A stretch of 64,000 bases of DNA, taken from the NCBI GenBank assembly GCA_963662655.2, contig CAXXTU010000002.1, positions 3,328,001 through 3,392,000 on the forward strand, read 5' to 3'. The notes under the pieces are model-generated. The model had not been told where the DNA came from and did no database searches. It saw only the letters and a list, made by a program, of their open reading frames with translations. Below are positions 9,331 through 64,000 of the stretch, piece by piece. The position numbers and the translations under genes are program-made. Origin of the DNA: Candidatus Cloacimonadales bacterium (lineage in GTDB: Bacteria; Cloacimonadota; Cloacimonadia; Cloacimonadales; JAIOQZ01). Position 1 is the first letter of the stretch; each line of letters starts with the position of its first letter.

Positions 9331-9525
9331 TGCACGACTCAGCGCGGCGGGGCGGCGCGTGTGCGGAGCACACAAAACTGAATCGAAGCGCTGCCGGCGG
9401 CTTCGATTCAGTTTAAGAAAGCCCTGAATCCCGACGCGTTCTCCGGAATGAGTTTACAATGGGTTGCAGAACGCGTCATGGGATTGGGCTTTCTGCGCCG
9501 CCCCGCCGCGCAGGGGGTACGTGCA
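9331..9525. repeat. Multibranch inverted-repeat element family B, copy 1
   Basis: 17-bp perfect IR GCGCGGCGGGGCGGCGC at 9342-9358/9495-9511 enclosing further hairpins; related element at 49427-49637. Confidence 0.75.
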
Positions 9526-13138: not shown

Positions 13139-13170
13139 ATGATGACAATCCATAAGATATTTCCGACTCA

Positions 13171-13300
13171 GGCGTGAGCAGATTCGTTCGATCTTACGCG
13201 CAGGCGTGGTGTTGCACGTCTTTTTATTGGAGTTCGATAGTTTTCAAGACGTGCTATATCCACGTTGGAGCGGAAGATCGGGCGAAGATGCCACGCCGGG
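13171..13300 (+). repeat. Structured hairpin element family A, copy 2
   Basis: GGCGTGAGCAGATTCGTTCG...GTGGTGTTGCACG...CGTGCTATATCCAC...CGGGCGAAGATGCCACGCC. Confidence 0.8.
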
Positions 13301-13488
13301 AATTCAAGAGGGCGGAAGGCAATGTCCGACCATCAAGGCATTCTCGATCAATCTGAGCTACGTCGTGTATATAACACGCCTCCGACTTCCTGCACGTAAG
13401 AAACGAGCAGGAAAGTCTCCACCGTGTAACAACACGACTTCGCGATCAGATTCATCGATTCTGCGCTTGATTCTCAGCCGTGACCAGA

Positions 13489-15495: not shown

Positions 15496-15841
15496 AATGT
15501 ATTCTCCTGCGGGGTTTACTTTTTGTTAATGGAGGGGCGTGGGAAGTCAAGGAAATTATTGTTGGAAGCAGGATTTATCGGATTAAAGGATTCGCAGGAT
15601 GGAGAGAAGGTTGCTCGTGGCATCAAGCTGAAGTTGTAAATGGGTGCGCGCTCCTCTGCTCCCTTCCTCTTCATCCGAAGGGGAAGGGCCGGGGATGGGG
15701 TTTCCCTACTTGCAGGCAAGGTTGCCTGCGTTCCACCGGGATCGTGATAAAGTATGATGGACTGATGCGACAAGTGGAGCTGGTTCCTCTCTATCCTGCC
15801 AATCCTGAGAATTCTGAAAATTGCTGATTCAGACAAAAAAA

Positions 15842-16044
15842 TGGCACGCCAGCAGGGACTCGACGTAACGACGACGGTTCTCGTCCCAAGCGTATGGAAA
15901 GCAGTAAATTCAGATAAGCGCTGGAAGATGGTGCAAAAAAAATGGCACGCCAGCAGGGACTCGACGTAACGACGACGGTTCTCGTCCCAAGCGTATGGAG
16001 AGCAGCAAATTCAGATAAGCGCTGGAAGATGGTGCATAAAAAAA
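15842..16044 (-). repeat. Two tandem 101-102-bp units, each containing the last 22 nt of tRNA-Arg(UCU)
   Basis: TGGCACGCCAGCAGGGACTCGA at 15842, 15943 and 16045, with near-identical intervening sequence. Confidence 0.95.
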
Positions 16045-16121
16045 TGGCACGCCAGCAGGGACTCGAACCCCGGACCTACGGCTTAGAAGGCCGTTGCTCT
16101 ATCCGGCTGAGCTACTGGCGC
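16045..16121 (-). tRNA. tRNA-Arg(UCU)
   Basis: 77-nt cloverleaf GCGCCAGTAGCTCAG...ACGGC CT TCT AA GCCGT...TTCGAGT...GCCA. Confidence 0.97.
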
Positions 16122-16172: not shown

Positions 16173-16250
16173 TGGTAGCGGCCACAGGGACTCGAACCCC
16201 GGACACTCGGATTATGATTCCGATGCTCTAACCAACTGAGCTATGCCGCC
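16173..16250 (-). tRNA. tRNA-CAU, probably elongator Met; one extra base in the acceptor 3' strand
   Basis: GGCGGCATAGCTCAGTTGGTTAGAGCA TCGGA AT CAT AA TCCGA...ACCA; 78 nt; Ile2 identity not excluded. Confidence 0.9.
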
Positions 16251-16263
16251 ACTCTATTATCAA

Positions 16264-16340
16264 TGGTAGCGAGGGGAGGATTTGAACCTCCGGCCTTCGG
16301 GTTATGAGCCCGACGAGCTACCTGACTGCTCCACCTCGCG
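16264..16340 (-). tRNA. Initiator tRNA-fMet(CAU)
   Basis: C1:T72 mismatch, GGG/CCC anticodon stem, CAT anticodon, encoded CCA. Confidence 0.96.
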
Positions 16341-41458: not shown

Positions 41459-41593
41459 ATTGCTTACCGTCGGGGCATCTTCACCCGTTCCGCCCCTCTG
41501 CGGGGATATACCGCAGCCTAGATTATAATGAGAAGAAAGGCAGCAAGGCTGTGAAACACCCCGCAGAGGGGCGGAACGAACGAATCTGCTCCC
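41459..41593 (-). repeat. Structured hairpin element family A, copy 3
   Basis: Perfect 19-bp IR GTTCCGCCCCTCTGCGGGG at 41487-41505/41559-41577, with the same flanking motifs as copy 1. Confidence 0.85.
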
Positions 41594-41732
41594 TCCTCCG
41601 GGTGGCTTTTTGGGGGAGGTTGTTTGATCCCATTAAACAAATGCAGAAAAAAGAATTACTTGACCATGAGGCAGCAAACGAAAACGTTGCCGTCTGTAAG
41701 GGGAGATATACTGTAGTGGGAGCAGCAAGAGA

Positions 41733-49426: not shown

Positions 49427-49637
49427 GCACAGGCTCAGCGGCGGGGCGGCGGCGTGTGCGCTTTGCGCACTTACACATTAGGAATCGCTTTTTGTTCTGA
49501 AAGCGATTCCTAATGTGCAGGTAAGCCTTTGGGATTTTATGATTGATTCGAATACGGCGGTGTAATGGAAGATTGAGATTGCTCTGAGTTTGTTGACGAT
49601 GGCTTACCACGCCGCCGCCCCGCCGCGCGGATGGTGC
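49427..49637. repeat. Multibranch inverted-repeat element family B, copy 2
   Basis: 19-bp perfect IR 49438-49456/49608-49626; inner 18-bp IR 49474-49491/49500-49517. Confidence 0.75.
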
Positions 49638-49645
49638 GTAAAAAG

Positions 49646-49747
49646 ATGGCGCGCCTGCAGGAACTCGACGTAACACGATGATTCTCGTTCCACGCCTGTG
49701 GAGAGCTATCAAAGTGGGACCACGGTAGAAGATGGTGCGCAAAAAGA
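49646..49747 (-). repeat. 102-bp unit containing the last 22 nt of tRNA-Arg(UCG)
   Basis: TGGCGCGCCTGCAGGAACTCGA at 49646 and 49748; spacer homologous to the units at 15842-16044. Confidence 0.9.
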
Positions 49748-49795
49748 TGGCGCGCCTGCAGGAACTCGAATCCCGAACCCTCTGATCCGAAGTCA
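49748..49795 (-). other. 3' 48-nt fragment of tRNA-Arg(UCG); probable prophage attachment site
   Basis: TGA CT TCG GA TCAGAGGGTTCGGGATTCGAGTTCCTGCAGGCGCGCCA; the D-arm and 5' acceptor strand are replaced by AT-rich sequence. Confidence 0.85.
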
Positions 49796-50035
49796 TGAGG
49801 GCATAATAACATAACAGATAACAAAACAATCAGTTAGGCTCATATATAAACAAGATAATGACAAATACGTGCCAAAACAATCAATATTTTGCACCATATA
49901 GCCCGATAACTCAGAACTACCTGATATATAACGATTAAGCCCATACATGCCGATATATAATAAAGAATCCGATAGACTCGAAAGCCATTGACAAACAAAG
50001 AGTTAGCGTAAAATCTTTCTTGTGGATGGTACGAA

Positions 50036-50938
50036 ATGGAAAAACAGGTAAAGAACCAAATCATCATGAAGCATTTCTGGTGTGACGAGTGTAGTCACTA
50101 CTGGAAAACGAACGACTTTCGTGAAGACGCGTCGATCGAAGGTGATTACAGGTTCTTTTCACGTTGTCCTATGTGCAACGAAGAGAGGATCAACAAGCAC
50201 CATTGCTACGGTCAGCTTGAAAAAGCCTGGGCAAGTGCAACGGGGCCACAGACAGAGAAAGGCAAGAACCGTGCGCGGCTGAATGCCGTTAAGCACGGGA
50301 AGTACATGAGAGTGCTTACTGCAATGGCTCCCGCGAAGTATGGGAAATACTCGAACTGTGATAAGTGTGACGAGAAGAAAGAATGTGAGGCTGGCGAAGT
50401 TCGGTACTGCCCTCATCAACGTGGGATTATGCTCCGTTTTTTACAGGCGTACGAGGACGGAGACGTTGAGGCTTTGAAGGCTTATGCCGCTATGGCGCAA
50501 GCAAGGACGATGGGCGTTCTCGATAACATCTTCGCCGAGATACTTAACAGGGGCGTATTGATTGAAGAACCGAAGCTGCGTTCGAACGGCGAACAAGCCG
50601 AGACTTCCGAAGGTATTCCTATCGTCGAGATCAAGCGCAACCCACTTATAAAACAAATTCCCGAAATGATGAGAACCCTTGGGTTCGAAGCCGAACAGCA
50701 GAGGATGACTCCGGCAAGCAACGACGCAAAGGATACTGATCCTTCGGGAAACCTAAAGGGTATTGAGACCGCATCCGACTTTCTCAAAGAGTTAAGGGAA
50801 ACTCTTAATACTGCAATCGACGGGGTGTCGTTGAAAAAGCGAAGGGAACAGGACGAGATTTTGCAGGCACTTGAGCACGACGGTTCGATTGAAAATGTGA
50901 AGGTAGAGTACCCTAACAAGAATGTATTTAAACCGTGA
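50036..50938 (+). CDS. Putative terminase small subunit with Cys clusters
   Basis: ATGPQTEKGKNRARLNAVKHG motif, several CxxC, IKRNPL; directly upstream of TerL. Confidence 0.65.
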   Translation: MEKQVKNQIIMKHFWCDECSHYWKTNDFREDASIEGDYRFFSRCPMCNEERINKHHCYGQLEKAWASATGPQTEKGKNRARLNAVKHGKYMRVLTAMAPAKYGKYSNCDKCDEKKECEAGEVRYCPHQRGIMLRFLQAYEDGDVEALKAYAAMAQARTMGVLDNIFAEILNRGVLIEEPKLRSNGEQAETSEGIPIVEIKRNPLIKQIPEMMRTLGFEAEQQRMTPASNDAKDTDPSGNLKGIETASDFLKELRETLNTAIDGVSLKKRREQDEILQALEHDGSIENVKVEYPNKNVFKP

Positions 50939-52548
50939 TGTCAGGCGTAACAAGCAAGGCCGATAAGAGGCTCGAATTTTACAGAAATTTAGCGCAACAG
51001 GATATAGTATTAGCGTGTTTGCTCTTTGCAAAGGACATATGTGATTGGACTCCGAGATATCATCAGATATATCACATCAAGGAGATGCTCAGTAATCAGC
51101 GTGTTCTCAATGTTCTCCCCCCGAGATCGGGGAAAACCTCAGAGACGGAGCTGGTTGACCTTTTTGACTGCGTGATTAATCCGTGGGAAGAGCTTCGTTT
51201 GTATTGCCCGAAGAAAGAACAGGGCAAGGAGGCGATGCGCTACATTTACAACTGGATCAACGAATCATCAATTCTGCATTCCTTTCTACGGAAACACAAT
51301 GGAAAGCCGGTTCTCTCTCATGAACGATTCGAGTTTGCGAACATGAGTATTGGGGAAGTGCATTCCGTTGCGGCCAAAGTCGAAGGGCATAACGCGACGA
51401 TTGCGAGACTCGAAGAATTCGACGACTGGAAATTCGAATGGTTTTCCGAGAAGGTCATGAGGCGTATCGCGGCCCCTAATAAGAACGGACTTCCTACAAG
51501 AATCAGGATCACGGGAACGATCAAAGGACAAGAGAACATCTTCCGCATGGTTACAGAGAAGGGGCTGAGTTCGCAGTATAAAAACCTGATGGTACATCCT
51601 GTGATGGGGATTCTGGACGTTCATGCAATGATTGAGTGCGGCGCGCTCGACCCTGATGCGGTTGAACAGCAACGCCTTACAATGCCTCCAGACGAGTGGG
51701 CTCGATCGATGCTGCTCAAGTTTACCGAGGCAACCAACTTCATTTACAGCCGTTATCTCAGAGAATCGATGAAGGCGGCCATGGAGTGGGACATTCCGCT
51801 CGATGGGATTGATCCATATCGAGACGGGTATTACCAGACATGTGGGAAAATCGCGATCGGTTTCGACTGTGGACATTCAGGGCAATCGAAAGAGTCATCC
51901 GTCTATTCGCTTCAAGTTGTGGAGGAGATAGGCGACTGGCGACGCTGGATATACGCGAAGAAGTGGGCACCGGATGTAGATGAATCTCAGCTTCAGGATG
52001 AAGTGTTCGAGATTTTCCGTTTCTTCAAGCCTGATGGCGGATATGGCGATGCGCTGCAAGCCAACACCATTCAGAGCATCAACAAGCGGCTTTGGCGTGA
52101 GGGAATATCCTTCTTAAACCCTGAAGAGCATCCCGAGAATAACGCGTCGAACTGGAAGAGATGGTATTTCTCTCCCCTATGGAATACAGGGAAAGAGAAA
52201 CATTTCTACTATTCGTCGCTTCGAAACGGTGTTCACGGAGGTAAGTTCTTCTTCCCATACTACGACGCGAAAGATACCAGGCCGATTGCAATCATCTGCA
52301 AGCAAACCATTCAGAGTATTCTCAATATCCGGCAAGAGACCACAGCAGGACAATACCCGAGATATTACGGAGCATCCAACGAACACGGTGACGATCATGC
52401 CGACGCGCTGGGAATGGCGTGTCGATGGCTCGACGATCACCGCGACATACAAGTCAACTACAAGCTGGTTGAGGGCCACGGTGAGCACAAAATGATCACC
52501 GGACTGAAACGCACGAGATTGTCGTCCAGGATTATGGACGACTTCTAA
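50935..52548 (+). CDS. Terminase large subunit
   Basis: Walker A PPRSGKT, Walker B RLEEFDD, ITGT coupling motif, nuclease IGFDCG and GDDHADALGMA. Confidence 0.88.
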   Translation: MMSGVTSKADKRLEFYRNLAQQDIVLACLLFAKDICDWTPRYHQIYHIKEMLSNQRVLNVLPPRSGKTSETELVDLFDCVINPWEELRLYCPKKEQGKEAMRYIYNWINESSILHSFLRKHNGKPVLSHERFEFANMSIGEVHSVAAKVEGHNATIARLEEFDDWKFEWFSEKVMRRIAAPNKNGLPTRIRITGTIKGQENIFRMVTEKGLSSQYKNLMVHPVMGILDVHAMIECGALDPDAVEQQRLTMPPDEWARSMLLKFTEATNFIYSRYLRESMKAAMEWDIPLDGIDPYRDGYYQTCGKIAIGFDCGHSGQSKESSVYSLQVVEEIGDWRRWIYAKKWAPDVDESQLQDEVFEIFRFFKPDGGYGDALQANTIQSINKRLWREGISFLNPEEHPENNASNWKRWYFSPLWNTGKEKHFYYSSLRNGVHGGKFFFPYYDAKDTRPIAIICKQTIQSILNIRQETTAGQYPRYYGASNEHGDDHADALGMACRWLDDHRDIQVNYKLVEGHGEHKMITGLKRTRLSSRIMDDF

Positions 52549-52567
52549 AATCGATAAGGAGGAATTC

Positions 52568-53047
52568 ATGCGAAAACGATTTATTTCCATCATGCTACTG
52601 ATCGTTCTGACTTTGTCATGCACGATGGCATTGGCCGAGAATATCGGCAAGGATATGGGGCCACCGGATCAGAATGTCACCGGAGGGCGGATTGACGAGA
52701 ATACCGACACAACAGTTCGTCAGTATATCCTCCCGATCCTTGCGCTTGTAATCGTGACGGTGCTAACGCTGGTATTCAAGAAGAGCAACATCACAAAAGA
52801 CCGAATCCTACGACTGCTTACCGAAATCTGGAATATCATCGTCGATATCGATAACGACACCTCTTCACCGAACAACAGCCATACACGAGCGTCCCGGAAG
52901 CAAAAGACGCTCGCCAGAATTGAACAGGTAATTCCGAAGAAGGATAAAAGCCTGCTCGAAAAGACGTTCGGAAGCCTCAGCGGAGCGGTTGAAATGGCCT
53001 TTCAGGTATTCAAATACGGTCGTCCAATCATCAAGAAAATATTTTAA
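52568..53047 (+). CDS. Phage membrane protein (signal peptide plus TM), holin-like candidate
   Basis: Two hydrophobic segments, basic tail, AAGGAGG RBS. Confidence 0.5.
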   Translation: MRKRFISIMLLIVLTLSCTMALAENIGKDMGPPDQNVTGGRIDENTDTTVRQYILPILALVIVTVLTLVFKKSNITKDRILRLLTEIWNIIVDIDNDTSSPNNSHTRASRKQKTLARIEQVIPKKDKSLLEKTFGSLSGAVEMAFQVFKYGRPIIKKIF

Positions 53048-53088
53048 CAACGGCACGGGATAGCGGATGAAAAGACAGGAGCGCGGAC

Positions 53089-55320
53089 GTGATTAATGAA
53101 CATCGAGCGAAACGGATCAAACGGGAAAATCGACTGATACTTGAAGAAGTGACCCGCGCTCCTCGTCATCTGGCTACTTTACAAGGACGTTCACCGTACG
53201 AAAATCCCGATCGACAGGCGAGCAGGCGAGGTATCGAATACCTTGAGACGCACGTTGAATCGGACGGGCAGTACAAGTCTCAGATTGAAAGCCGTATCTC
53301 CGGTGTGCTGAAAAACCGGTATGAGATCGAACCGGGACACCAGATAATCGACGGGAAGAAGGTCGTTACGCAACGCGATGCCGAGATTGCCGAATTTGTA
53401 AGATGGAATCTGGAACACGTTCCAAGCTTCATCACCGATCTGAAGGCGATGCTCTCTGCAATCAGCAGGGGATTCAGCCTTTCGGAAATCAACTGGAAGC
53501 GCATTACGTCCGGTCAGTATGCCGGAAAAATTGGAATTCAGAATATCCGGCACAAGGAACAACGATATTTCTCGTTTGCCTTCGACGACATGGGATATTT
53601 TCAGCCAACGATGGTTGATCCCGAATACCGGCGGCTTCCCTTGAATAAGTTTATTCATGTCATTTCAGGCATCGACGACGAAAAGCCGTTCGGAACCCCG
53701 CTGGCAAGTCCTTGCTCGTTTTACACATGGCTGAAAAAGGGCGGATTCAAGGACTGGTCGTATTTCCAAACCCGATTCGGCCAACCGCTGGTAAAGGTGG
53801 GCGTACCAGAGAATACGCAAACCGGCGATGATGCGGACAAGGCGGCCACACGCATCTTCGAGGCTGCTGAAAGAGGGACGGGAATCAAGGTACCGAAGAA
53901 TCTGGATGTGTCGTTCCTTGAGGCGATGAGATCGGGAACCGCAACGCAGAAAGACTTCGTGGACGCATGTAATCGGGAGATCAGCGTTACGGTATTGGGT
54001 GTAACGCTTACGACCGACGAGGGGAAAAACACCGGTACGCATGCACTGGGATCGGTTCACGCAGAGAAAGAGGCAACGACAATTCTCTTCGACTCGATCA
54101 TGCTTTCCTCAGCCATTAACGATCAGTTGATCAAACGCCTGGTCAATTTCAATTTCCCCGGTGTCGAGAACTATCCGCGGTTCATTCTACCCCACTTCAA
54201 CTACTCGTACTTTGTGGCATTCGCTCAAGGTATTATGGCGATGGTTCAGGCGGGAGTGAAAATCCCGATGAACTGGGTTCGAAAAATCGCAATGCTTCCG
54301 GTTCCAGAAGAGGGCGAAGAACTCGTTCAGCAGGTAATCCAGACAATCACGAACGCTCAGGGAAAGGGAATCGACAACAAGGCCAAAGAGGCACATCAAC
54401 ACCACATCGATAACGATCGCGCGATACAGGACGGATTTGGAAGCCATTTCTCTGCAGAAACGGAGATCGAGAACTTGAACGTGAAATTGATCATGGACAA
54501 CGATCCCATCATTCGACGTTACGCCGGATCCGTGAGCGTCATTCTCGAAGACGAGATTCGCAAACTGATTCCGTCAATCATGGTATCGGGCACAATACCG
54601 GAGAAATCCGACAAGCTGAACCAATCCATTGCCACCCAGATAAACGAAATGATGGTGTTGGGATATCTCAGGGGGATGTACTCCATTCGAAAAGAGACCG
54701 AACACCTCGCTACATTCACAGAGGAGACTCAGGAAGAACCCGCCGCGCATTCTCTTCTGTTCGCACCTTTCAACGAAATCGTCCAGGAATACCTCAACCT
54801 TATCGAGCTGAACAAGGCGGCGTACGACCTTATCAGTGAGACGATGAAGCGTAAGGCTTTCACGGTGGCTGGCGTATTCAGCGAGAAAGGATTGAACGCC
54901 TTACATACGGCTATCGGAGAAGGGCTTGAAAAGGGACTCACTCAGGTTGAAATCGAGCTTAAGATGTCACGAGAGCTTAACCGATTAGGGCTTTCGGGAC
55001 TTCGGAGCTGGCATTCAGAATTGATTGTCAGAAACAACCTCATGGAAGCCTACTCCGGCGGACGAGAGAAGGTGTTGTCATCACTTAGTGATACGGAATT
55101 CCCTGCAAGGCAAGTTCTGTGCATCCTTGATGTCAGGACAAGGCCAAGTCACGCTGCATTCCATCGATTTACACGACCGCTGAACGATCCAATATGGAAC
55201 ATGCTACACACGCCATTTGACCACAATTGCCGGTGTACGATCCGCGCTATCCACAAATCGGAGAGCTACACGATTACCGAGGTATTGCCGGATATGTCCG
55301 GACTGGGGTTTGTCCAATGA
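53089..55320 (+). CDS. Portal protein (Mu gp29/DUF935-like) fused to Mu gpF-like head morphogenesis domain
   Basis: AISRGFSLSEINW, RFGQP, NREISVTVLGVTLT, GTHALGSVH; C-terminal KAFTVAG, RNNLMEAYSGGR, DVRTRPSH, PFDHNCRC. Confidence 0.85.
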   Translation: MINEHRAKRIKRENRLILEEVTRAPRHLATLQGRSPYENPDRQASRRGIEYLETHVESDGQYKSQIESRISGVLKNRYEIEPGHQIIDGKKVVTQRDAEIAEFVRWNLEHVPSFITDLKAMLSAISRGFSLSEINWKRITSGQYAGKIGIQNIRHKEQRYFSFAFDDMGYFQPTMVDPEYRRLPLNKFIHVISGIDDEKPFGTPLASPCSFYTWLKKGGFKDWSYFQTRFGQPLVKVGVPENTQTGDDADKAATRIFEAAERGTGIKVPKNLDVSFLEAMRSGTATQKDFVDACNREISVTVLGVTLTTDEGKNTGTHALGSVHAEKEATTILFDSIMLSSAINDQLIKRLVNFNFPGVENYPRFILPHFNYSYFVAFAQGIMAMVQAGVKIPMNWVRKIAMLPVPEEGEELVQQVIQTITNAQGKGIDNKAKEAHQHHIDNDRAIQDGFGSHFSAETEIENLNVKLIMDNDPIIRRYAGSVSVILEDEIRKLIPSIMVSGTIPEKSDKLNQSIATQINEMMVLGYLRGMYSIRKETEHLATFTEETQEEPAAHSLLFAPFNEIVQEYLNLIELNKAAYDLISETMKRKAFTVAGVFSEKGLNALHTAIGEGLEKGLTQVEIELKMSRELNRLGLSGLRSWHSELIVRNNLMEAYSGGREKVLSSLSDTEFPARQVLCILDVRTRPSHAAFHRFTRPLNDPIWNMLHTPFDHNCRCTIRAIHKSESYTITEVLPDMSGLGFVQ

Positions 55321-55841
55321 CATTCATGCAAGCGGAACAACCATACAACTTAAGGACGGAACCAATGGGAAACCAGATTTCAGAACAATTCGTAAAGACG
55401 ATTGAAGCGCAATTGGTTCGCCATGAGGGCGAGAAACTCAAGCCGTACCGGTGTCCGGCCGGCAAGTGGACGATCGGCGTGGGGCGGAACCTGGAAGACA
55501 GGGGCATTACAACCGACGAACTAGTGAAAATCTTCAGGGAAAGCGGCATTACAGAAGAACAATCACGAACACTGCTTCGTAACGACATCAATGCAACGAT
55601 TCAACAACTGAACCGGCATCTTTCCGAGGTATTCAACTCCCTGAACGACTCCCGAAAGGCCGTGCTGGTGGACATGGCGTTCAACATGGGAATCGGGGGG
55701 CTGCTGAAGTTCAAACGGATGATTCAGGCACTAGGAGTCCGCGATTATGAACGCGCGGCGATTGAGATGCTGGATTCACGATGGGCGCGACAGGTGGGAA
55801 GGCGCGCGAACAATCTTTCAGAACAAATGAAAAGGGGATAA
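55317..55841 (+). CDS. Phage lysozyme (GH24/T4-like endolysin)
   Basis: HEGEKLKPYRCPAGKWTIGVGRNL, LVDMAFNMG, EMLDSRWARQVGRRA. Confidence 0.92.
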   Translation: MTFMQAEQPYNLRTEPMGNQISEQFVKTIEAQLVRHEGEKLKPYRCPAGKWTIGVGRNLEDRGITTDELVKIFRESGITEEQSRTLLRNDINATIQQLNRHLSEVFNSLNDSRKAVLVDMAFNMGIGGLLKFKRMIQALGVRDYERAAIEMLDSRWARQVGRRANNLSEQMKRG

Positions 55842-55846
55842 ACGCT

Positions 55847-56260
55847 ATGGGAAACAAAAGCAATCTTGAGATTAAAACCGAGCCTACAGAGAAGGTTTCA
55901 ATCACCATACACACCGATATCGATACACTCGTATTAGCTGGCCCAATGATGGTAAAGAACGGACTTGGATCACTTCTTCTTGGTAGATCGGAAGACGAAT
56001 CAGAAAAGGGCGGACTGCAAAACACAATGTACACATTGATCCAGGAACTCTGGTTTACCGGTGAAATCAAACCCTTTCTCCGTACGATTTTGCATATCGA
56101 TGAACTTCCTAAATTCACCTTCCGTGAGACATGGGAGATTGTCGGGGTTTTTTTAGGACTGCTCACGATGGGATCGAGCGGGGGTACCGACGATGGCCTG
56201 AAGCGAGTAAGCAATCCAGAGGAAGCGACAGGACGGAGACTGGGCATCCGTTTCGCATAA
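55847..56260 (+). CDS. Phage protein, possible tail assembly chaperone (gpG-like)
   Basis: 137 aa; in-frame T TTT TTA heptamer overlapping a -1 frame ORF that runs to 56406. Confidence 0.5.
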   Translation: MGNKSNLEIKTEPTEKVSITIHTDIDTLVLAGPMMVKNGLGSLLLGRSEDESEKGGLQNTMYTLIQELWFTGEIKPFLRTILHIDELPKFTFRETWEIVGVFLGLLTMGSSGGTDDGLKRVSNPEEATGRRLGIRFA

Positions 56261-56378
56261 TCAAGTTCCAGCTCATGCAGATTGGGGTGTATCACCCTGG
56301 GATGCCGATCGATATGGCACTGGAATTTTACGGATATTGGCTAAAACAGGAAGCAGCAAAGAAGAAGGAGATTGAGAA

Positions 56379-56675
56379 ATGGCAGCGGCGAAAAGGATAT
56401 CGGTAACGGCTATTCTGGTGTGCGTAATAACGGCCCTGTGGGGCGTGGTTTACTGGCAGATACAGGGAAACGAGGACGGCATCGAGGAGAACAGGAAATC
56501 CATCGTGTTGATCTACGAGAAGATCAGCGACCTTGAAAACGGACAGATTACCAAGGCTGAATTCAAGGAGATTGTGGCTGACGGGTTGAAGGCTTTCAAG
56601 CTGGATTGCATTGAAGAGGGAAGCATGTTCGTACCTGGTGCCCAACCACAACGGAAACCGGAGAGCAGACCATGA
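56379..56675 (+). CDS. Small phage membrane protein with coiled coil
   Basis: One N-terminal TM; overlaps both neighbours. Confidence 0.6.
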   Translation: MAAAKRISVTAILVCVITALWGVVYWQIQGNEDGIEENRKSIVLIYEKISDLENGQITKAEFKEIVADGLKAFKLDCIEEGSMFVPGAQPQRKPESRP

Positions 56676-57889
56676 GCAAGCAATTATTCAAGTACTATCG
56701 CCACGAGAAGAACCAAGACGGAAGCTACAACATCTACGGCGTCGAGGTGTTCATCCTGGGATTACATCGCAAATTCAACTACGACAAGACATGGTTCGAG
56801 CGAGCGAAGCAAAATCATGAAGAGAAGACAGCCAAGGGGAACTTGCCGCCGATCTTCATCGGGCACAACGATGGAACAGAGAAACGCGCTTGCGGGTTCT
56901 TCGACAACCTTCGCCTCAATGGCGACATGGTTGTGGTGGATTTCCTGAAGATTCCGGCATCTATATTCGCTCTGATTGCAGATCGAGCATATCCGAACCG
57001 CTCTATTGAGGTTTGGGAGAAAAACGCATACATAAGCGGAATCGCTCTTTTGGGATCAAGCGAACCTTTCCATAAGCTTCCGAGCCTGGAGATCGACCAT
57101 ACAGAACAGATCATGGCTGCCAGCGTTCCACTCGGCGCAGCCGTACATTTCTCGACGTACGATGACGGCAAGCTCACCCACGTAATGACTTTTGGCCATC
57201 AGGACGACGACGACACATCCTTCTTCAATATGTTCTTCCGCTGGTTGATGAACTCGAAGAAGATGGAGCCAGGGGACACTCTTCGATTACTCATGAATCA
57301 TTTCGACAACATCAAAAAGGAAGAACCGCAGGACACGGCAGGCAACCCTGATGGCGGGACTCAGACAGAGGACAAAAACGGCACACAAAAGAAACCAGAA
57401 GCAGAAGCAGAAGGAGAAGGAACTATGGATTTCAATGAGGAATTCAAACAGAAGTATGGGATGACTCCCGAGGAGTTCGTTGCAAAGCAGAAGAAAGAAG
57501 CTGAAGAGCGGCTCCGAAGGGATCGAGAGCATTACGCCAGCCTGTTCAAGATCAAGCTGGATGGAATGGACGTATGCCCCGCGATTACCGAAAGCGTTCA
57601 TGCTTTTATGGAAGCTGGTACGGACGAAAAGGTGCGGTTCGGTAAAGACGATCTCGATCACCGAGAGGCTTTCGAAAAGCTTATCACCGACATCATTGAG
57701 AAGGCTACGGAAGGCGAACTCGTGGTGAACATGCAGGAAACCGCGGGTGGCAAGGGAACACAGAACTTCGACGACGACGACGACGATCCGGTAACAATCG
57801 ACAAGGGTATCAAGAAGATCATGCGCGAAAAGGGCGTGGATTACAACGAAGGATTCGAAATCTTCTTCGTAGACAGGGGAGGTGAGTGA
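56672..57889 (+). CDS. Mu-like prohead protease/scaffold (gpI/gpZ-like)
   Basis: PIFIGHN, ACGFF, YPNRSIE, GIALLGSSEP; acidic linker and helical C-terminal half; precedes capsid genes. Confidence 0.78.
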   Translation: MSKQLFKYYRHEKNQDGSYNIYGVEVFILGLHRKFNYDKTWFERAKQNHEEKTAKGNLPPIFIGHNDGTEKRACGFFDNLRLNGDMVVVDFLKIPASIFALIADRAYPNRSIEVWEKNAYISGIALLGSSEPFHKLPSLEIDHTEQIMAASVPLGAAVHFSTYDDGKLTHVMTFGHQDDDDTSFFNMFFRWLMNSKKMEPGDTLRLLMNHFDNIKKEEPQDTAGNPDGGTQTEDKNGTQKKPEAEAEGEGTMDFNEEFKQKYGMTPEEFVAKQKKEAEERLRRDREHYASLFKIKLDGMDVCPAITESVHAFMEAGTDEKVRFGKDDLDHREAFEKLITDIIEKATEGELVVNMQETAGGKGTQNFDDDDDDPVTIDKGIKKIMREKGVDYNEGFEIFFVDRGGE

Positions 57890-58356
57890 TGAGCTTGCAC
57901 GGACGAAATACGGGCGCAGTGGTCTCGGTGGATGCCACTGAAGATATTACCAAGCGGCGACTTGTTACCGCTGGCGGCAAACACGAAGCGAACAAACTCG
58001 CAGTGGGCGCAGCGATCTACGACCAGGACGATGGAAAGTCGGCAAGCATTCAGCAATACGGTATTGCTGAGGTGGTCACAGGGGCTGCCGTGGCTGTTGG
58101 CGATCTGGTGAAGAGCGATGCGGACGGAAAGGTCGTCCCCTTGGCAATGGTCGATTACACCCCAACAACCAGCGCATTGGTTGGCGGGGGAACCGTCGCG
58201 GAACTGGCAGCGGAAATCAACACGGCACTCAACATCGAACGGGGGCTTATCCAGGCAGCAATCAACGCGAACAAGGCTGAAGTTGGACGTATCTGCGGAC
58301 GCGCACTCCAATCGGCTGAGGGCGCAAATGAAATCATCCGAATCCAACTGGCGTAA
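57886..58356 (+). CDS. Capsid cement/decoration protein (DUF2190-like)
   Basis: GIAEVVTGAAVAVGDLVKSDADGK and GRALQSA motifs. Confidence 0.72.
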   Translation: MMSLHGRNTGAVVSVDATEDITKRRLVTAGGKHEANKLAVGAAIYDQDDGKSASIQQYGIAEVVTGAAVAVGDLVKSDADGKVVPLAMVDYTPTTSALVGGGTVAELAAEINTALNIERGLIQAAINANKAEVGRICGRALQSAEGANEIIRIQLA

Positions 58357-58367
58357 GGAGAATAGAA

Positions 58368-59384
58368 ATGAAACAGAAGCTGAAGCTGACAACGAAATCA
58401 GACTACAAGAACATGAATATCCAGCAGCTCCGGAAGTTCGTCGAGCAGTTCGAGGCCCGAGACTCTCAGTTGAGGGGAGACACACATCCCATTGTTAAGG
58501 GTATGCTTCTCGGGGCACTCTATCCAGGCTTTATCGGAGACAAGGCGGTTCCGACGATCGAAACCCTGACTCAAGCCGGTACCTATCTGATCGGTGGAGA
58601 CAGAGAGGGGCTCGACAAGCATGAGACCAAGCGCGCACTGGGCAGCAAGCCGAACACGGTGAGCATGTCGAACAGCTCGGCGAAGTTCGCTTGCGAGGAA
58701 AGGGCACTGGAAATCGAGCTCGATTACGCGGAGCTCGATATTGCAGAAGCTCACGGAGCCAAAGAAACACTGAAATTGAAACGTCGTGCAGGGCACATCA
58801 TCCACTACATTCTACATCTAGTCAGGGAGCTCGAAATAGCGGAAAAGGTGTTCGGGTACGACAACTATGATTCGGGGCAAAGAATAACCCTGTCAGGATC
58901 CGACCAATGGAGCGACAACGATAGCGATCCCGAAGGCGTTATCATAGACGCAGTGGAGGCGTTTGAAACCCAGGCGGGGATTTCACCGAACACCCTGATC
59001 CTTGGCGTGCAGGTTTACAATACTCTCAAGCAACATCCAGCACTCAAAAGCTTCATCAGCGATAACCGCTCCAAGAAGGTGCGTCATGAGGATATGCTCG
59101 AGTTTTTCGACGTTGAAAACATCCTCGTTGGTAAGGGCATCTATCGCGACAATGGGGTCGTCTCCAGAATTTGGGGAAAGAAAGCAGCCCTGCTTTATCT
59201 GCCGCCGGAAGGAATGCAGCTCGATATCATGCCGTATCACACGGTCAATTTCGAATGGAAGAAACGCTTCGATGTCCGCGAAGTAGCACGCGAGGACACC
59301 GTCGCGCTGAAGGAATACATGTCGTACCAAATCCAGACCTTGAGCAAGAAATTCGGGTATCTCGTTGAAGGCGCGATAGCGTAG
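58368..59384 (+). CDS. Major capsid protein
   Basis: 338 aa; LSGSDQWSDNDSDP, PNTLILG, LKQHP, IWGKKAALLY, C-terminal GYLVEGAIA. Confidence 0.85.
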   Translation: MKQKLKLTTKSDYKNMNIQQLRKFVEQFEARDSQLRGDTHPIVKGMLLGALYPGFIGDKAVPTIETLTQAGTYLIGGDREGLDKHETKRALGSKPNTVSMSNSSAKFACEERALEIELDYAELDIAEAHGAKETLKLKRRAGHIIHYILHLVRELEIAEKVFGYDNYDSGQRITLSGSDQWSDNDSDPEGVIIDAVEAFETQAGISPNTLILGVQVYNTLKQHPALKSFISDNRSKKVRHEDMLEFFDVENILVGKGIYRDNGVVSRIWGKKAALLYLPPEGMQLDIMPYHTVNFEWKKRFDVREVAREDTVALKEYMSYQIQTLSKKFGYLVEGAIA

Positions 59385-59392
59385 GGGGACGT

Positions 59393-59713
59393 ATGATCAA
59401 GATCAAGACGAATATCAGGCACAATCATGTGTTGTACACGATTGGGCAAACCGTAGATGACATTCCTGGGCTTCCCGAGGTGGAGCGAAAGGAGATGATA
59501 CGGCTTGGGAAAATCGAGGTTATCCCCGATCCTCCAACAGCAGGAAGTAAAGAAGTGTATCGCGTAATCAAGGAAGAATCCGTGGAGCGCATGGACGGCA
59601 CCTTTCTGGACATTGGCGATCTTGTAACCGAGGACATGGAATTTCCGAAATCAATCAAACAGATGTTGCATTTCGGCTGGATTGAGCCTCAAGCAGAGAC
59701 AGGAGACAGATAA
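59393..59713 (+). CDS. Phage hypothetical protein following the capsid gene
   Basis: RBS, two short similar halves, operon position. Confidence 0.6.
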   Translation: MIKIKTNIRHNHVLYTIGQTVDDIPGLPEVERKEMIRLGKIEVIPDPPTAGSKEVYRVIKEESVERMDGTFLDIGDLVTEDMEFPKSIKQMLHFGWIEPQAETGDR

Positions 59714-60249
59714 TGGGAACATTAACAAGACCGACAGGGTTAGCAACGAACAGCTTCGACGATGCGCTACGCATCTGGAAGAAGCACTGTAGATTGTATG
59801 TTTCCGAAGGAATTGCCGGAGACGATAACACACCCGCAACCAAGGAAGCCCTTGCCGCATTGATCGACGCCAGCACCGGCGTTTTCGCCCCACTGGGCAG
59901 GCTAACCGAAGATTCCGGAGAACTCGACTGGGAGCAATTCTTCGATAAAGTATCAGAAGGAAAGGCTCTTGGTGATGTTGAAGTTACGGCGACGGCGAAC
60001 GTCATCGCGATTGACTCAGACCAACTTGCGTGGCTGGACAGCGCGAACGCGAAGAAGAAGCTTTCTCTCCTCGCGATACCGCTCGATCGGGACGACGAAT
60101 TCGTAATCATTTCCGGCGTGGACATGACTCACAAGGGCAAGATGCTCTTCAACGGCGGCCTCAGCCATTGTGACCTGACCTTTTCGGGAGTCTATTCGAC
60201 GATTGGGGCGTGTATCAAGGTAGGAACCGGCTTGACATCAGGAACGTAA
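59713..60249 (+). CDS. Phage structural protein, possible tail tube
   Basis: 178 aa, beta-rich pattern (FAPLGRL..GEL, VEVTA, DLTFSG). Confidence 0.5.
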   Translation: MGTLTRPTGLATNSFDDALRIWKKHCRLYVSEGIAGDDNTPATKEALAALIDASTGVFAPLGRLTEDSGELDWEQFFDKVSEGKALGDVEVTATANVIAIDSDQLAWLDSANAKKKLSLLAIPLDRDDEFVIISGVDMTHKGKMLFNGGLSHCDLTFSGVYSTIGACIKVGTGLTSGT

Positions 60250-60325
60250 TACAATCCTCCCCCCCCTCCCCTCCATCGATTCTTGTGGGAATTCAGGATG
60301 ACCTGGAGGGGAACAGGGCGAGGAA

Positions 60326-60667
60326 ATGGAGGTAGAAATGTTTGGAAGTATGTATCTCGATAAGAACGGGCATCCTCTTTATATCGGGAAATCCGAGTTT
60401 ATCGCCGACTTGGACGGAACGACAGAGGCGGTAAGCTATCCATCGAGCGGAACCTTTAGCGAGAAGAAGTTTCTTCGCTTAACATCAGAACTCGGGAACT
60501 TTCGGTATGGGATCGGTTCCGCACCGACCGTTGACGGAAGTAATGGCGTACTGGTTACCGAAGGTGTTGTCGAACTTACCGAAGTCGATGCTGGAGAGAA
60601 GCTCACGATTCACGGCAGTATTGTGAATGTATGCGAGCTGAAAGGCAAGCAAGCAGCGGGAGTATAG
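60326..60667 (+). CDS. Phage hypothetical protein
   Basis: ORF with RBS, abutting the next gene. Confidence 0.6.
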   Translation: MEVEMFGSMYLDKNGHPLYIGKSEFIADLDGTTEAVSYPSSGTFSEKKFLRLTSELGNFRYGIGSAPTVDGSNGVLVTEGVVELTEVDAGEKLTIHGSIVNVCELKGKQAAGV

Positions 60668-61519
60668 ATGTCTGGCTTTGGACGGATTGGATTTGTGAAT
60701 CGATCGCGGAATCCACGGAAAGCAGTCAAGTTCTTGGCGACGATCACCGATTACGCCAATCAGACGATCGTAATCAATGCCGGATGCATGTATGGTCATT
60801 CTGCGGCCATTCATTGGGGAGACGGTAATATTACTCCGATTGCCGGCACGGGAAGCGCTTCTGATCGTCCGCATCAATATTCAAAGAACGGCGTCTTCAA
60901 CATCGTGATTCTTGGCGATATCGGGTATGTAATGCGCGTCGAGATAGCAGGTCAAAGCCTTGTAAATCTGATTCCAAGCAGCCTATACGGGCTTACGAAT
61001 TGTCTCTATCTTTCCTTTTTCGGATCTGCCACGAGTATGGAATTATCGCCTAGAATGGCCGGGCTTCCGTCCCTGCAATTTTTTGTGGCCCGTGACCGCT
61101 GTTTCGGAGATGCGGCGTATCTGGCTCTGTGCGAAAATCTCGGATACATCGATATCCGGGAAGCTGACAGGGCACGTGGTGATGTCGGTGCCTTGCTCGG
61201 GCTGCCGCTGGGCTCAATATTCGCAAACAACGCAGGATTTTCTGCATACACGCCCGGCGTGTGTGCCTGGCATGTCGGATTTGTCGGTAATTTCTCCGGC
61301 AACTATGATTTTTCGGACTTGCATATCGTACGCATGTTGATCGACATGAAAACGGCTCGATCGTCAGGCTGGTCGGCCACCGTTACCGTCACGGGCTGTA
61401 ATAGGGGCTCATGCACGATAGCAAACCTTGATGTAGCCTTGGCGACAATCAAGGGCGTTCCTGAAGCCTCGATCGTTGAGTACCTCGATGGCACAGGGAT
61501 CATATTAAACACAAATTAG
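60668..61519 (+). CDS. Phage protein with PKD-like N-terminus and LRR-like repeats
   Basis: IHWGDG..HQYSKNGVFNI; LYGLTNCLYLSF, LPSLQFF, LCENLGYIDI, GDVGALLGLPL. Confidence 0.55.
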   Translation: MSGFGRIGFVNRSRNPRKAVKFLATITDYANQTIVINAGCMYGHSAAIHWGDGNITPIAGTGSASDRPHQYSKNGVFNIVILGDIGYVMRVEIAGQSLVNLIPSSLYGLTNCLYLSFFGSATSMELSPRMAGLPSLQFFVARDRCFGDAAYLALCENLGYIDIREADRARGDVGALLGLPLGSIFANNAGFSAYTPGVCAWHVGFVGNFSGNYDFSDLHIVRMLIDMKTARSSGWSATVTVTGCNRGSCTIANLDVALATIKGVPEASIVEYLDGTGIILNTN

Positions 61520-61527
61520 GGGGATGT

Positions 61528-61713
61528 ATGGCTGTATATAACTCAAACGCCTGGAGAATTGTGATCTATAACAATCGCCTGATATGCCTGACCGACTCCG
61601 AAAGCACGATCACAGACTATACGTGCGTCGAGTTCGACACCCGGGAGCAGGCGATTGAATACCTGGAACAGAATGGGATCGATTTCGAGCCATCAGCTAT
61701 CGGGGAATTGTAA
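61528..61713 (+). CDS. Small phage hypothetical protein
   Basis: GGGGG RBS; stop overlaps the next start. Confidence 0.55.
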   Translation: MAVYNSNAWRIVIYNNRLICLTDSESTITDYTCVEFDTREQAIEYLEQNGIDFEPSAIGEL

Positions 61714-62240
61714 TGCAGTACACAACCATTGAGAACGTTTTATTACGAATCCCCACGGGGATTCCCAAGGACTTCGAGAATCGTATTATCGAAGCGAATC
61801 CCGAGATTACCGAGGTGGAAAAGAGCGATGCCTGGCTGGCGAAGGTGCTGGAGATCATCGAAGAGGCTTCCGAGAGGATTGATGCCAAGCTGAAGCGATA
61901 CAAGAGGATTTACCATGACGGAACACAGAAGTTCCCCGATGTGACAGACGATCCGCCCACCCCATCCATCATAAGGATTTTATGTGAATTCGAGTGCGCG
62001 TATTCGACGGGTGTGTTCTTCGCTGGAGTAAGGCGCGTACGAACTACCGAAGATGAACAGTACCTTCTGAAGCGGATCAAAGAACGTTACGACGAGATCA
62101 ACGACGGCAGTGTCGTGATTGCAATCGGGGGCGTTGAGGCTTCCAGCGCGTATGAACCGGACTACATCGATCGAGATAGGGGGATTACGCAAGAGGGGAT
62201 GTCCGCCTTCTTCAGTTACGAAACCGAGGAAGAACGATGA
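61713..62240 (+). CDS. Head-tail connector (Mu gp36/DUF1320-like)
   Basis: MQYTTIE, IEEASERIDAKLKRY, PSIIRILC, EINDGSVVI. Confidence 0.72.
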   Translation: MQYTTIENVLLRIPTGIPKDFENRIIEANPEITEVEKSDAWLAKVLEIIEEASERIDAKLKRYKRIYHDGTQKFPDVTDDPPTPSIIRILCEFECAYSTGVFFAGVRRVRTTEDEQYLLKRIKERYDEINDGSVVIAIGGVEASSAYEPDYIDRDRGITQEGMSAFFSYETEEER

Positions 62241-62659
62241 GCGGATACACCAACCAGGCGGAAAACGAACTGGTATCAATACTGAATGAGCTCAACGCGA
62301 AGAACAATTGGGGCATCAGGCTGATTCATAAAAAGACGCGATTCGATTTGAACTACGCCGACCACGAACTTCCGGCTGTGAGCGTGAAGGTGGTGAGCAG
62401 AACGAAAGGTGAGCACATTGGGAAAAAGCTTTCCGGCAACATACTGGTCATGTCGATCGGAAGCGATTGGCATGAAATCCAGGAGGTGAACGACGACCTT
62501 GCAGACGCGATCGGTGATGCGCTGGAATCGTGGAACCCGAAGAATTGGAATTTCGCTTCGTTCAAGGTAATCAAGACAAGTAACATCGGTGATCAGGCGA
62601 ATGCGACCGATTTCTTCTATATGAGCCGGATCGACTTTGTATTTCAATACGTTGGGTAG
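62237..62659 (+). CDS. Putative tail terminator/completion protein
   Basis: 140 aa, ELPAVSV motif, position. Confidence 0.5.
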   Translation: MSGYTNQAENELVSILNELNAKNNWGIRLIHKKTRFDLNYADHELPAVSVKVVSRTKGEHIGKKLSGNILVMSIGSDWHEIQEVNDDLADAIGDALESWNPKNWNFASFKVIKTSNIGDQANATDFFYMSRIDFVFQYVG

Positions 62660-63172
62660 ATGAACCGGATAAATATCCCCGAATTGACACCTGAGACCAT
62701 CGAAAGCTTCGGGAAGCGAGCACAGACATATATGTACTCGCAAATCGTCAGGCAATTCGATGAGAACGGCTTGGGCGGAACATCGCGGGGTGTGATTTGG
62801 GATTATTACAAGCCGTGGTATTACCGAGTTACCGACAACACGGATGTCGATATCTTCGGACAGACCCCGAGGATACGCCCGAGCAGGTACGGCCACACCG
62901 GAGACAATATCCCTGCCAAGCTTCGGGACAATAAGAAAGAGTACGATCGCAGGTATCAGATCGGAGACAAGCTTCTTCAATTTACCGGACGACTCAAAAA
63001 CGCTTTAGTAAGCGATATGCAAATCGATGGAAATATCATTACGCTGATAACGCCCGTGAAATATGCGGCGAAACAGAACGACTCGAGACCCTTCAATTTC
63101 TTCACCGATGAAGATGCGAGTGTCATCGGGGAAATGGCAGTGGATGAGGTTGTAAAGAGAGTAGAGGAATAA
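62660..63172 (+). CDS. Virion morphogenesis protein (Mu gpG-like)
   Basis: RQFDENG..W, LLQFTGRLKNAL, VKYAAKQN..RPF. Confidence 0.72.
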   Translation: MNRINIPELTPETIESFGKRAQTYMYSQIVRQFDENGLGGTSRGVIWDYYKPWYYRVTDNTDVDIFGQTPRIRPSRYGHTGDNIPAKLRDNKKEYDRRYQIGDKLLQFTGRLKNALVSDMQIDGNIITLITPVKYAAKQNDSRPFNFFTDEDASVIGEMAVDEVVKRVEE

Positions 63173-63222
63173 ATCCTCTCAATCTCCTCTTATCAGGGGA
63201 GTGTTAAGAAACGGAGACTGGA

Positions 63223-64000
63223 ATGGCGCGGACACTGGAACTGATTATTGAAGCGAATCTCACGGGCGACAAGGACGTACGCGACCTGATCACCTCTCTG
63301 CAGAAAGAACACAGCCTTAAGATCAAGGTTACTCAGAACAATTTAAAGCAAGCAAGCAAGGACATCGAGAAGAGCGCGGAGAACGCGCGCCAGGCATGGG
63401 AACGGTTCAATTACAGCATCATGGATAAGCCTGACCAGCTCGCAGCCAAATTCAAGAACATGCGAGGCGTGATCGAGAAAGGTTTCGGCTTTGAGGAAGG
63501 TGCGGAAAACGCGAGTGCCGAGGCAAAGAAGGCGTATTCCAAGCTGAACGAATGGTTCCGCAAAGAAAACGAGAAGCTTGCCACCACCATGCAAAGCGGC
63601 GGAAAAAAGGCCAGCGACGGATTCGTTTCCGCATTCGGTTCACTGGGCGGACTTGCGGCAAGGTTTACTTTCTACCGTTTTGCAGTTCAGAGAATCGCGC
63701 AGGATACGGCGCAACTCGCTCAAGCGATGATTCAACCCAGCGTGGAGGTTGAAGCACTCCAGATGAGACTGGACAGCCTTTACCAGAGCACCGTAAAGGG
63801 TGCAATGGCGTATGAGAAATTCGCCGGTATCGCCTCGACAATACCTTTTGAATTGAAAGAAGTAACCAATGCAGGTGCGCAACTCAAGGCATTCGGAATG
63901 AGCGCGACGGAATCGCTGAAGGCAATTGCCGATCTTGCCGCTTTCATGGGGACGGATATCGTGTATGCCGCGAACGCTGCGGGACGCCTTTGGGCTGGCG
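63223..64000 (+). CDS. Tail tape measure protein, truncated by window end
   Basis: Not in the ORF track; open from ATG 63223 (MARTLELIIEANL) to the end; ASTIPFELKEVTNAGAQLKAFG..IADLAA tape-measure motif. Confidence 0.88.
   Translation, partial: MARTLELIIEANLTGDKDVRDLITSLQKEHSLKIKVTQNNLKQASKDIEKSAENARQAWERFNYSIMDKPDQLAAKFKNMRGVIEKGFGFEEGAENASAEAKKAYSKLNEWFRKENEKLATTMQSGGKKASDGFVSAFGSLGGLAARFTFYRFAVQRIAQDTAQLAQAMIQPSVEVEALQMRLDSLYQSTVKGAMAYEKFAGIASTIPFELKEVTNAGAQLKAFGMSATESLKAIADLAAFMGTDIVYAANAAGRLWAG

Follow-up and report, generated by a model that had tools for sequence, protein, structure and literature searches.

Core-less TLR-type repeats of about 100 nt, tailored to the local tRNA, behind tRNA genes of a Candidatus Cloacimonadales bacterium

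We analysed a 64,000-nt stretch (the window) of contig CAXXTU010000002.1 (assembly GCA_963662655.2, positions 3,328,001 to 3,392,000 of the forward strand) from a Candidatus Cloacimonadales bacterium. Within it, the gene for tRNA-Arg(UCU) is followed by two tandem units of 102 and 101 nt, which are 97% identical and differ at 3 positions, and a fragment of tRNA-Arg(UCG) is followed by one further unit (Table 1). The initial annotation, made by a model from the letters alone, had described this arrangement, and both the number of units and their length of 101-102 nt were confirmed; the end that it gave for the Arg-UCG unit (49747) was correct, whereas its start (49646) was one base off and lies at 49647. 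Its proposal that spacers of about 80 nt are homologous at the two Arg loci also held: the 80-nt spacers share 76% identity (E 7e-7, search in the whole genome). The 22-nt tail, said to match the local tRNA, is an exact copy of tRNA positions 55-76, and such a copy ends each unit at Arg-UCU, Arg-UCG and, outside the window, Ala-CGC.

Table 1. Features of the two unit-bearing loci in the window (window coordinates)
Feature	Position	Strand	Remark
tRNA-Arg(UCU)	16045..16121	-	last gene of a Met-Met-Arg tRNA cluster (16264-16340, 16173-16250)
Unit 1, 102 nt	15943..16044	-	opens with T-run and 5' part; inverted T-arm, short linker and copy of the tRNA 3' end follow
Unit 1, 5' part, 54 nt	15991..16044	-	homologous to the Arg-UCG and Ala-CGC 5' parts (0/2000 shuffles reach the score); without terminator hairpin
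Unit 1, inverted T-arm	15977..15988	-	copy of tRNA positions 52-63, GA standing for the central TC; 12/12 against the cognate prediction
Unit 1, 3' copy	15943..15964	-	direct copy of tRNA-Arg(UCU) positions 55-76, CCA at the end
Unit 2, 101 nt	15842..15942	-	tandem duplicate of unit 1; inverted T-arm 15876-15887, 3' copy 15842-15863
tRNA-Arg(UCG) fragment	49748..49795	-	prophage attR, 48 nt from the anticodon arm on
Arg-UCG unit, 101 nt	49647..49747	-	host side of the prophage; inverted T-arm 49680-49691, 3' copy 49647-49668
Partial repeat, 17 nt	49630..49646	-	repeats part of the Arg-UCG unit's 5' part; runs into a REP-like repeat of another family

After the CCA of the tRNA, each unit opens with a T-run and 5' part of 53-56 nt; the inverted T-arm (12 nt), a short linker and the tail copy follow in this order. 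The inverted T-arm, which lies 54 nt past the CCA and has the central TC replaced by GA, had escaped the initial annotation; it is tailored to the local tRNA and defines the family. The gap between this motif and the tail copy is 14-15 nt in the short units, and no folded core lies there.

The suggestion that all tRNA loci of this genome and its relatives be searched for the spacer bore fruit within the genome, and gave weak matches only in the relatives. A screen of the 51 ARAGORN tRNA calls in the whole genome revealed a third exact unit behind tRNA-Ala(CGC) (C2:1059618-1059718) and a decayed unit behind tRNA-Ser(GGA), whose 3' copy is decayed as well. The unit-bearing loci are thus four (Arg-UCU, Arg-UCG, Ala-CGC and Ser-GGA), with 1-2 copies each; tRNA-Arg(ACG) is followed by a degenerate remnant without a 3' copy. 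A profile built from the five spacers recovered only those five in the whole genome, at E values of at most 1e-15 that are self-matches by construction, and the next match had an E of 0.8. Wide occurrence of the spacer away from tRNAs, named in advance as what would speak against a tRNA-bound family, was therefore not seen: the whole-genome profile gave no such copy.

We compared the inner 12 nt of each inverted T-arm with the cognate tRNA and found 12/12 matches at Arg-UCU, Arg-UCG and Ala-CGC, and 11/12 at Ser-GGA. The same match level is reached by 6, 1, 8 and 9 of the 43 tRNAs for Arg-UCU, Arg-UCG, Ala-CGC and Ser-GGA, respectively, and the tailoring within this genome is to be read from three informative positions only (53, 59 and 61). 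The Arg-UCG copy follows that tRNA's A53-T61 pair. The outer bases of the inverted T-arm do not track the local stem, and the Ser-GGA mismatch falls on one of the informative positions. Among Arg-UCU, Arg-UCG and Ala-CGC, the 5' parts show homology in every pair (0/2000 shuffles), and the Ser-GGA 5' part is clearly homologous to the Arg-UCG one only. The unit is a mosaic in which shared, local, shared and local parts alternate.

A hairpin of the form TCCA-loop-TGG had been proposed for the spacer and did not withstand analysis: none of the 8 folds of the unit was significant (z from -1.3 to +1.7). On the transcribed strand, no terminator-like site was found in the units at this genome's loci. 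When the tRNA and the unit were folded together, a fold-back was predicted in which the motif pairs with the T-arm, with 9-10 pairs at Arg-UCU and in the congener G002; the prediction was mixed at Ala-CGC and absent at Arg-UCG. The fold-back was thus predicted in 2 of the 4 short units, a third being mixed, and in 60 of 72 long units of the wider family described below, although the search pattern itself brings in part of this pairing, and tRNA tertiary structure and modification are ignored. Pairing of the tRNA 5' acceptor strand with the downstream tail copy was also predicted.

The tRNA-Arg(UCG) fragment is the attR of a 41.6-kb prophage, and the intact tRNA lies with an integrase at C2:3418197-3419498. 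The att core of this prophage, 48 nt long, extends from the anticodon arm on, and its genes include members of portal, head and integrase families. The prophage spans window positions 49796-64000 and continues to G000:C2:3419422; its portal and head genes are Mu-like, and three tyrosine-recombinase matches fall within it.

Several other repeats and tRNAs were noticed in the same genome. A REP/MITE-like family with GC-rich inverted ends and inner hairpins occurs at window positions 9340-9513 and about 49436-49630, the copy at the latter locus adjoining the Arg-UCG unit; genome-wide, 24 left-end and 18 right-end pattern matches were counted, a few of them by chance, in a genome without Y1 transposase. 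A second family, of inverted-repeat elements of about 140 nt, lies at 1153-1294, 13170-13302 and 41459-41597. The trailers of tRNA-Pro(GGG) at 311447 and tRNA-Val(CAC) at 2759014 (G000:C2) carry a common repeated motif, reminiscent of integrase arm sites from a single element family that occupies two different tRNAs. Outside the window, at G000:C2:1968909-1968998, lies a tRNA of 90 nt that has a long variable arm and the anticodon GCA; the start of the ORF behind it is, by eye, similar to the SelA proteins of loci in family f11. A similar tRNA in another genome (G140, L078) has TCA. Selenocysteine tRNAs that read cysteine codons exist, and the GCA tRNA may be one of them.

In G002, tRNA-Arg(UCG) is intact and has a 101-nt unit behind it. 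The offset (54 nt) and the tailoring of this unit are as in the genome studied here and its linker is similar, and its 5' part is not clearly homologous to the 5' parts found here. At the orthologous sites of congeners, units were found in 0/3 for Arg-UCU, 0/3 for Ala-CGC, 0/4 for Ser-GGA, 1/3 for Arg-UCG and 0/6 for Arg-ACG. G003 has the first 25 nt of the G002 unit and lacks the rest, and this partial sharing fits loss of the unit as well as its gain. The combination of a tRNA followed by the motif was present in 15 of 232 genomes of the phylum, which is probably Cloacimonadota, namely the present one, G002 and 13 of the 62 genomes of family f11, in addition to one control match; family f3 had none in 98 genomes. 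These phylum counts are lower bounds, since incomplete genomes often lack tRNA loci. Family f11 belongs to the same taxonomic order as the genome studied here, and its complete units measure 187-216 nt and contain a folded core; no long unit was found in family f1. In five tRNA-Arg loci of f11 (L086, L087, L092, L095 and L314), a palindromic insert of 50-110 nt splits the tail copy at the same point.

Homology searches for the short unit itself gave little. BLAST with the tRNA and its units returned tRNAs only in 60 relatives, and the spacer alone gave short weak matches only in 100 relatives. With the spacer profile, 140 relatives likewise yielded only weak matches; 2 of the 29 inspected sat behind tRNAs and led to the wider family. 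A general 3'-duplication pattern, which cannot match tRNAs with A53, had 4 matches outside this genome among 232 genomes, all of them chance on inspection, and a looser pattern in five family members gave matches that we judged from their sequence to be chance as well. In viral contigs the core-less form was not found (4 matches, all with long cores) and the spacer pattern had 0 matches. Nor was the form found in 351 genomes of another phylum, where the 4 matches comprised 2 chance matches and 2 att-like fragments without an upstream tRNA. Among the collections searched, the core-less form is known from this genome and one congener only.

The long form proved far more widespread. A pattern scan gave at least 120 metagenomic loci and 12 viral loci, of which 125 were distinct and, after 2 had been dropped as too short, 123 were retained. 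For these 123 loci, among the matches listed, agreement of the free motif bases with the T-stem of the local tRNA was 245/369 and 217/369; in 10,000 permutations the means were 116 and 128 and the maxima 148 and 156. The test overstates the effect because the loci include kin. Position 59 agrees in 109 of the 123 (permuted mean 88, maximum 99). After identical pairs had been collapsed to 102 loci among the matches listed, the three values were 188, 163 and 88, versus permuted maxima of 120, 128 and 82. The tail copy was present in 73 of the 109 listed loci for which 300 nt of downstream sequence exist. Motif and copy are 46-180 nt apart in 76 of 76 listed loci, versus 14-15 nt here. A stable hairpin in the 5' part, mostly terminator-like, occurred in 94% of the 123 listed loci, whereas the short units lack one. 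The Rfam RtT model matched 5 of 18 metagenomic loci tested, which have the same layout.

When the central pair was left free, the 31 viral loci had TC in 13, GA in 10, CA in 5, AT in 2 and TT in 1, the CA and AT matches not resembling TLRs. Perfect TC inverted T-arms are thus as common as those with GA (13 and 10 of 31), a pattern that copying from the local gene would be expected to produce. The idea that GA is an obligatory central mismatch was discarded, given the TC, TT and AA forms. A link to TwoAYGGAY was also considered: such loops occur in some of the long cores, but no Rfam match to it was seen in 20 loci. In the section of 10.64898/2026.09.22.753630 consulted, TwoAYGGAY is not placed at tRNAs. 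Three TLR-type units (L308-L310) in a Saccharibacteria genome of 0.8 Mb (G233) have inverted T-arm centres AA, TT and GA, and in viral contigs L223, L227, L228, L231 and L233 such units often lie at the very contig end, as if prophage predictions stop there.

The initial annotation had pointed to E. coli tyrT, and the pointer was apt, as the unit has the tyrT/TLR layout. By the definition in PMC8144298, a TLR sits immediately behind a tRNA or rRNA gene, and its 3' end equals the 3' end of that upstream RNA gene (18-19 bp in E. coli). According to that paper, E. coli has 22 TLRs at ten loci, with one to five copies per locus, and they have been known there since 1978 without a known function. 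The units described here fall under this definition: they stand behind tRNAs, and they repeat the tRNA 3' end (22 nt, exact at three loci). They also carry an inverted T-arm of the tyrT type, but have no core of folded hairpins separating it from the 3' copy. Like the E. coli TLRs (178-bp tyrT/tyrV, RttR/RtT, RF00391), they are gene-less, directly behind a tRNA, often in tandem, and end in the tRNA 3' end, and we consider it very likely that the unit is TLR-type in layout. The inverted T-arm with GA is shared with the tyrT/tyrV repeats, in which the GA motif lies 59-62 nt after the CCA and deviates at 1 of 17 bases, followed by the core and a 19-nt tail copy. Unlike there, the 3' copy here is 22 nt rather than 18-19 nt, and 14-15 nt rather than about 100 nt separate it from the motif. 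The E. coli Lys and Arg TLRs have copies of 18-19 nt and no GA motif at 4 or fewer mismatches; the Lys units of 98-100 nt, which keep core hairpins and have no GA motif, are the reverse of the unit here. With the long f11 and metagenomic units, the short ones share the tailored inverted T-arm, the place behind a tRNA and the tandem copies, whereas the long units keep a folded core of 46-180 nt and, in the metagenomic case, mostly a terminator-like hairpin in the 5' part. The absence of a folded core and of a terminator, in a unit that is nevertheless tailored to each tRNA, is new.

The covariance-model comparison with Rfam suggested by the initial annotation gave no match in the window. For RtT (RF00391, threshold 45 bits), there was none at E up to 5 either, and 0 of 141 phylum genomes matched. 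Since the unit fails both on this score and on the core, we did not file it under Rfam RtT. In the literature searched, which stood apart from Rudd 1999, Egan and Landy 1978, and Bosl and Kersten 1991, we found no description of the inverted T-arm of TLRs, and a word search of the CoCoNuT preprint (PMC10542128) gave no mention of rtT.

Other classes of element resemble the unit in part. tRNA-targeting integrative elements, such as tyrosine-integrase islands and prophages, leave a direct repeat of the tRNA 3' end on both sides of the insert and the gene intact; the unit differs from them in having neither integrase nor cargo, in occurring as one family at several tRNAs with different tails, and in its inverted T-arm. 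REPINs and miniature elements of the IS200/IS605 type are gene-less, about 100 nt long, and likely act as folded single strands. Some of these REPIN features are given in 10.1101/2024.07.17.603846. The unit, in contrast, is found at tRNA ends only and with a target duplication, and its genome has 0 matches to the Y1 transposase on which assignment to this class would depend. A self-cleaving ribozyme was rejected for want of an Rfam match or a significant fold. Casposons have terminal inverted repeats and a casposase as hallmarks, and a casposon-derived element was rejected on the following grounds: by eye, the spacer is without inverted ends, and the only Cas1 of the genome, a 318-aa frame followed by a Cas2-like start, is one that we take to be CRISPR-type.

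Among the readings originally offered, a minimal non-autonomous tRNA-targeting element fits best. We put the probability at about 0.5 that this core-less TLR is a non-autonomous element which enters new sites through fold-back pairing with the T-arm and spreads between tRNA genes. In a single strand, the inverted T-arm would pair with the tRNA T-arm over 10 bp around a GA/GA mismatch, and the tRNA 5' acceptor strand would pair with the downstream tail copy, as the fold models predict. Such a fold-back, on transcribed or lagging-strand DNA, may guide insertion at the T-loop, whereby the tRNA 3' end would be duplicated and the gene left intact. Template switching would adapt the target-matching bases to the local gene, tandem copies would come from slippage involving the 22-nt repeats, and the unit, transcribed along with the tRNA, might be cut away as a CCA-ended by-product of roughly 100 nt. 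Candidates for the enzyme are a host replication or repair activity and a helper since lost.

The mosaic of shared and local parts and the empty orthologous sites in congeners support the insertion model. The short units of the two genomes share length and linker, which suggests that loss of the core preceded their spread and hence that the core is dispensable for spreading. We found no mobilising enzyme: this genome, 98.95% complete, has 0 matches to the Y1 transposase (PF01797) and no IS110, and Pfam models assigned none of the 70 ORFs next to units as transposase, integrase or reverse transcriptase. The genome has one reverse transcriptase match, with an internal stop, and two GIY-YIG matches. 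Against a T-arm guide, the fold-back fails at Arg-UCG here, the E. coli Lys and Arg TLRs are without the GA motif, and E. coli TLRs are also reported behind 5S rRNA (PMC8144298), which such a guide leaves unexplained. The stronger form, that the 101-nt unit is a minimal mobile TLR which retargets itself, its inverted T-arm guide being rewritten at each new tRNA, with no need of a core or a dedicated transposase, is put forward tentatively and is, on balance, doubtful.

Alternatively, the unit could act at the RNA level: the trailer would pair with the T-arm of its own tRNA, offer a second CCA end, and tune tRNA processing or release a small RNA, and selection would account for the tailoring. 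The units are indeed encoded on the transcribed strand, no terminator-like site separates them from the tRNA, and an alternative fold is predicted. In E. coli, the TLRs linked to 5S rRNA are found in transcripts that undergo processing close to the repeat and that interact with Hfq and CsrA (PMC8144298). By analogy with RrB in that paper, a CCA-ended small RNA from the unit is plausible. We nevertheless regard a role in RNA as unlikely, as there is neither a significant fold nor an Rfam match, the units are patchy among congeners, one is decayed, and the conserved core is gone. The RNA runs checked contained at most 0.06 of the locus words, and none covers the locus. A similarly improbable account takes them for inert remnants of full-length TLRs that have lost the core, been homogenised between loci by gene conversion, and been matched to the tRNA by passive template-switch correction. 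In favour of this account are the full-length units of f11, a family of the same taxonomic order, the decayed copies at Ser-GGA and Arg-ACG, and the fact that no mobiliser was found; the short units of two genomes, however, share a 79-81-nt spacer and a similar linker, which points to a single loss of the core before spread to several loci, and no long unit was found in family f1.

Explanations that invoke a tyrosine integrase crossing at the T-loop, with the units as its att scars or mini-islands or as decoys for such integrases, are in our estimate very unlikely. The junction does fall at a constant T-loop position, one unit adjoins the prophage attR, and the genome has six integrase-family matches. 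Yet every island would need its own tRNA tail and a tailored inverted T-arm, the G002 unit stands at an intact tRNA-Arg(UCG), and none of the 70 neighbouring ORFs encodes an integrase. The idea of a decoy att site, raised by the initial annotation, failed for the one resident integrase on which it was tested: the 48-nt att core of the prophage starts in the anticodon arm, outside the 22-nt copy. That the tandem copies are an assembly artefact is scarcely credible. Short, near-identical tandems are prone to mis-assembly, and none of the run contigs compared spans the whole array. Public runs X2, X4 and X5 do not cover the units, and runs with a small share of the locus words were excluded as evidence. 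However, 3 positions distinguish the copies, and units are present at further loci and in a second genome. In addition, a 131-nt contig of a public run is identical to 15835-15965, which covers unit 2 and the end of unit 1; as this run may be the window's own source, the support from it is weak.

The TLR layout is widespread, with 123 loci among the matches listed. For tools that search for islands there is a caution here, as not every repeated tRNA 3' end marks an att site. In a unit that is core-less yet tailored to four tRNAs, the inverted T-arm and the tail copy are the likely working parts, and the unit offers a natural construct of 100 bp for testing spread and tailoring. If the unit is indeed a minimal mobile TLR, it would be the simplest substrate for asking how TLRs, unexplained since 1978, are made.
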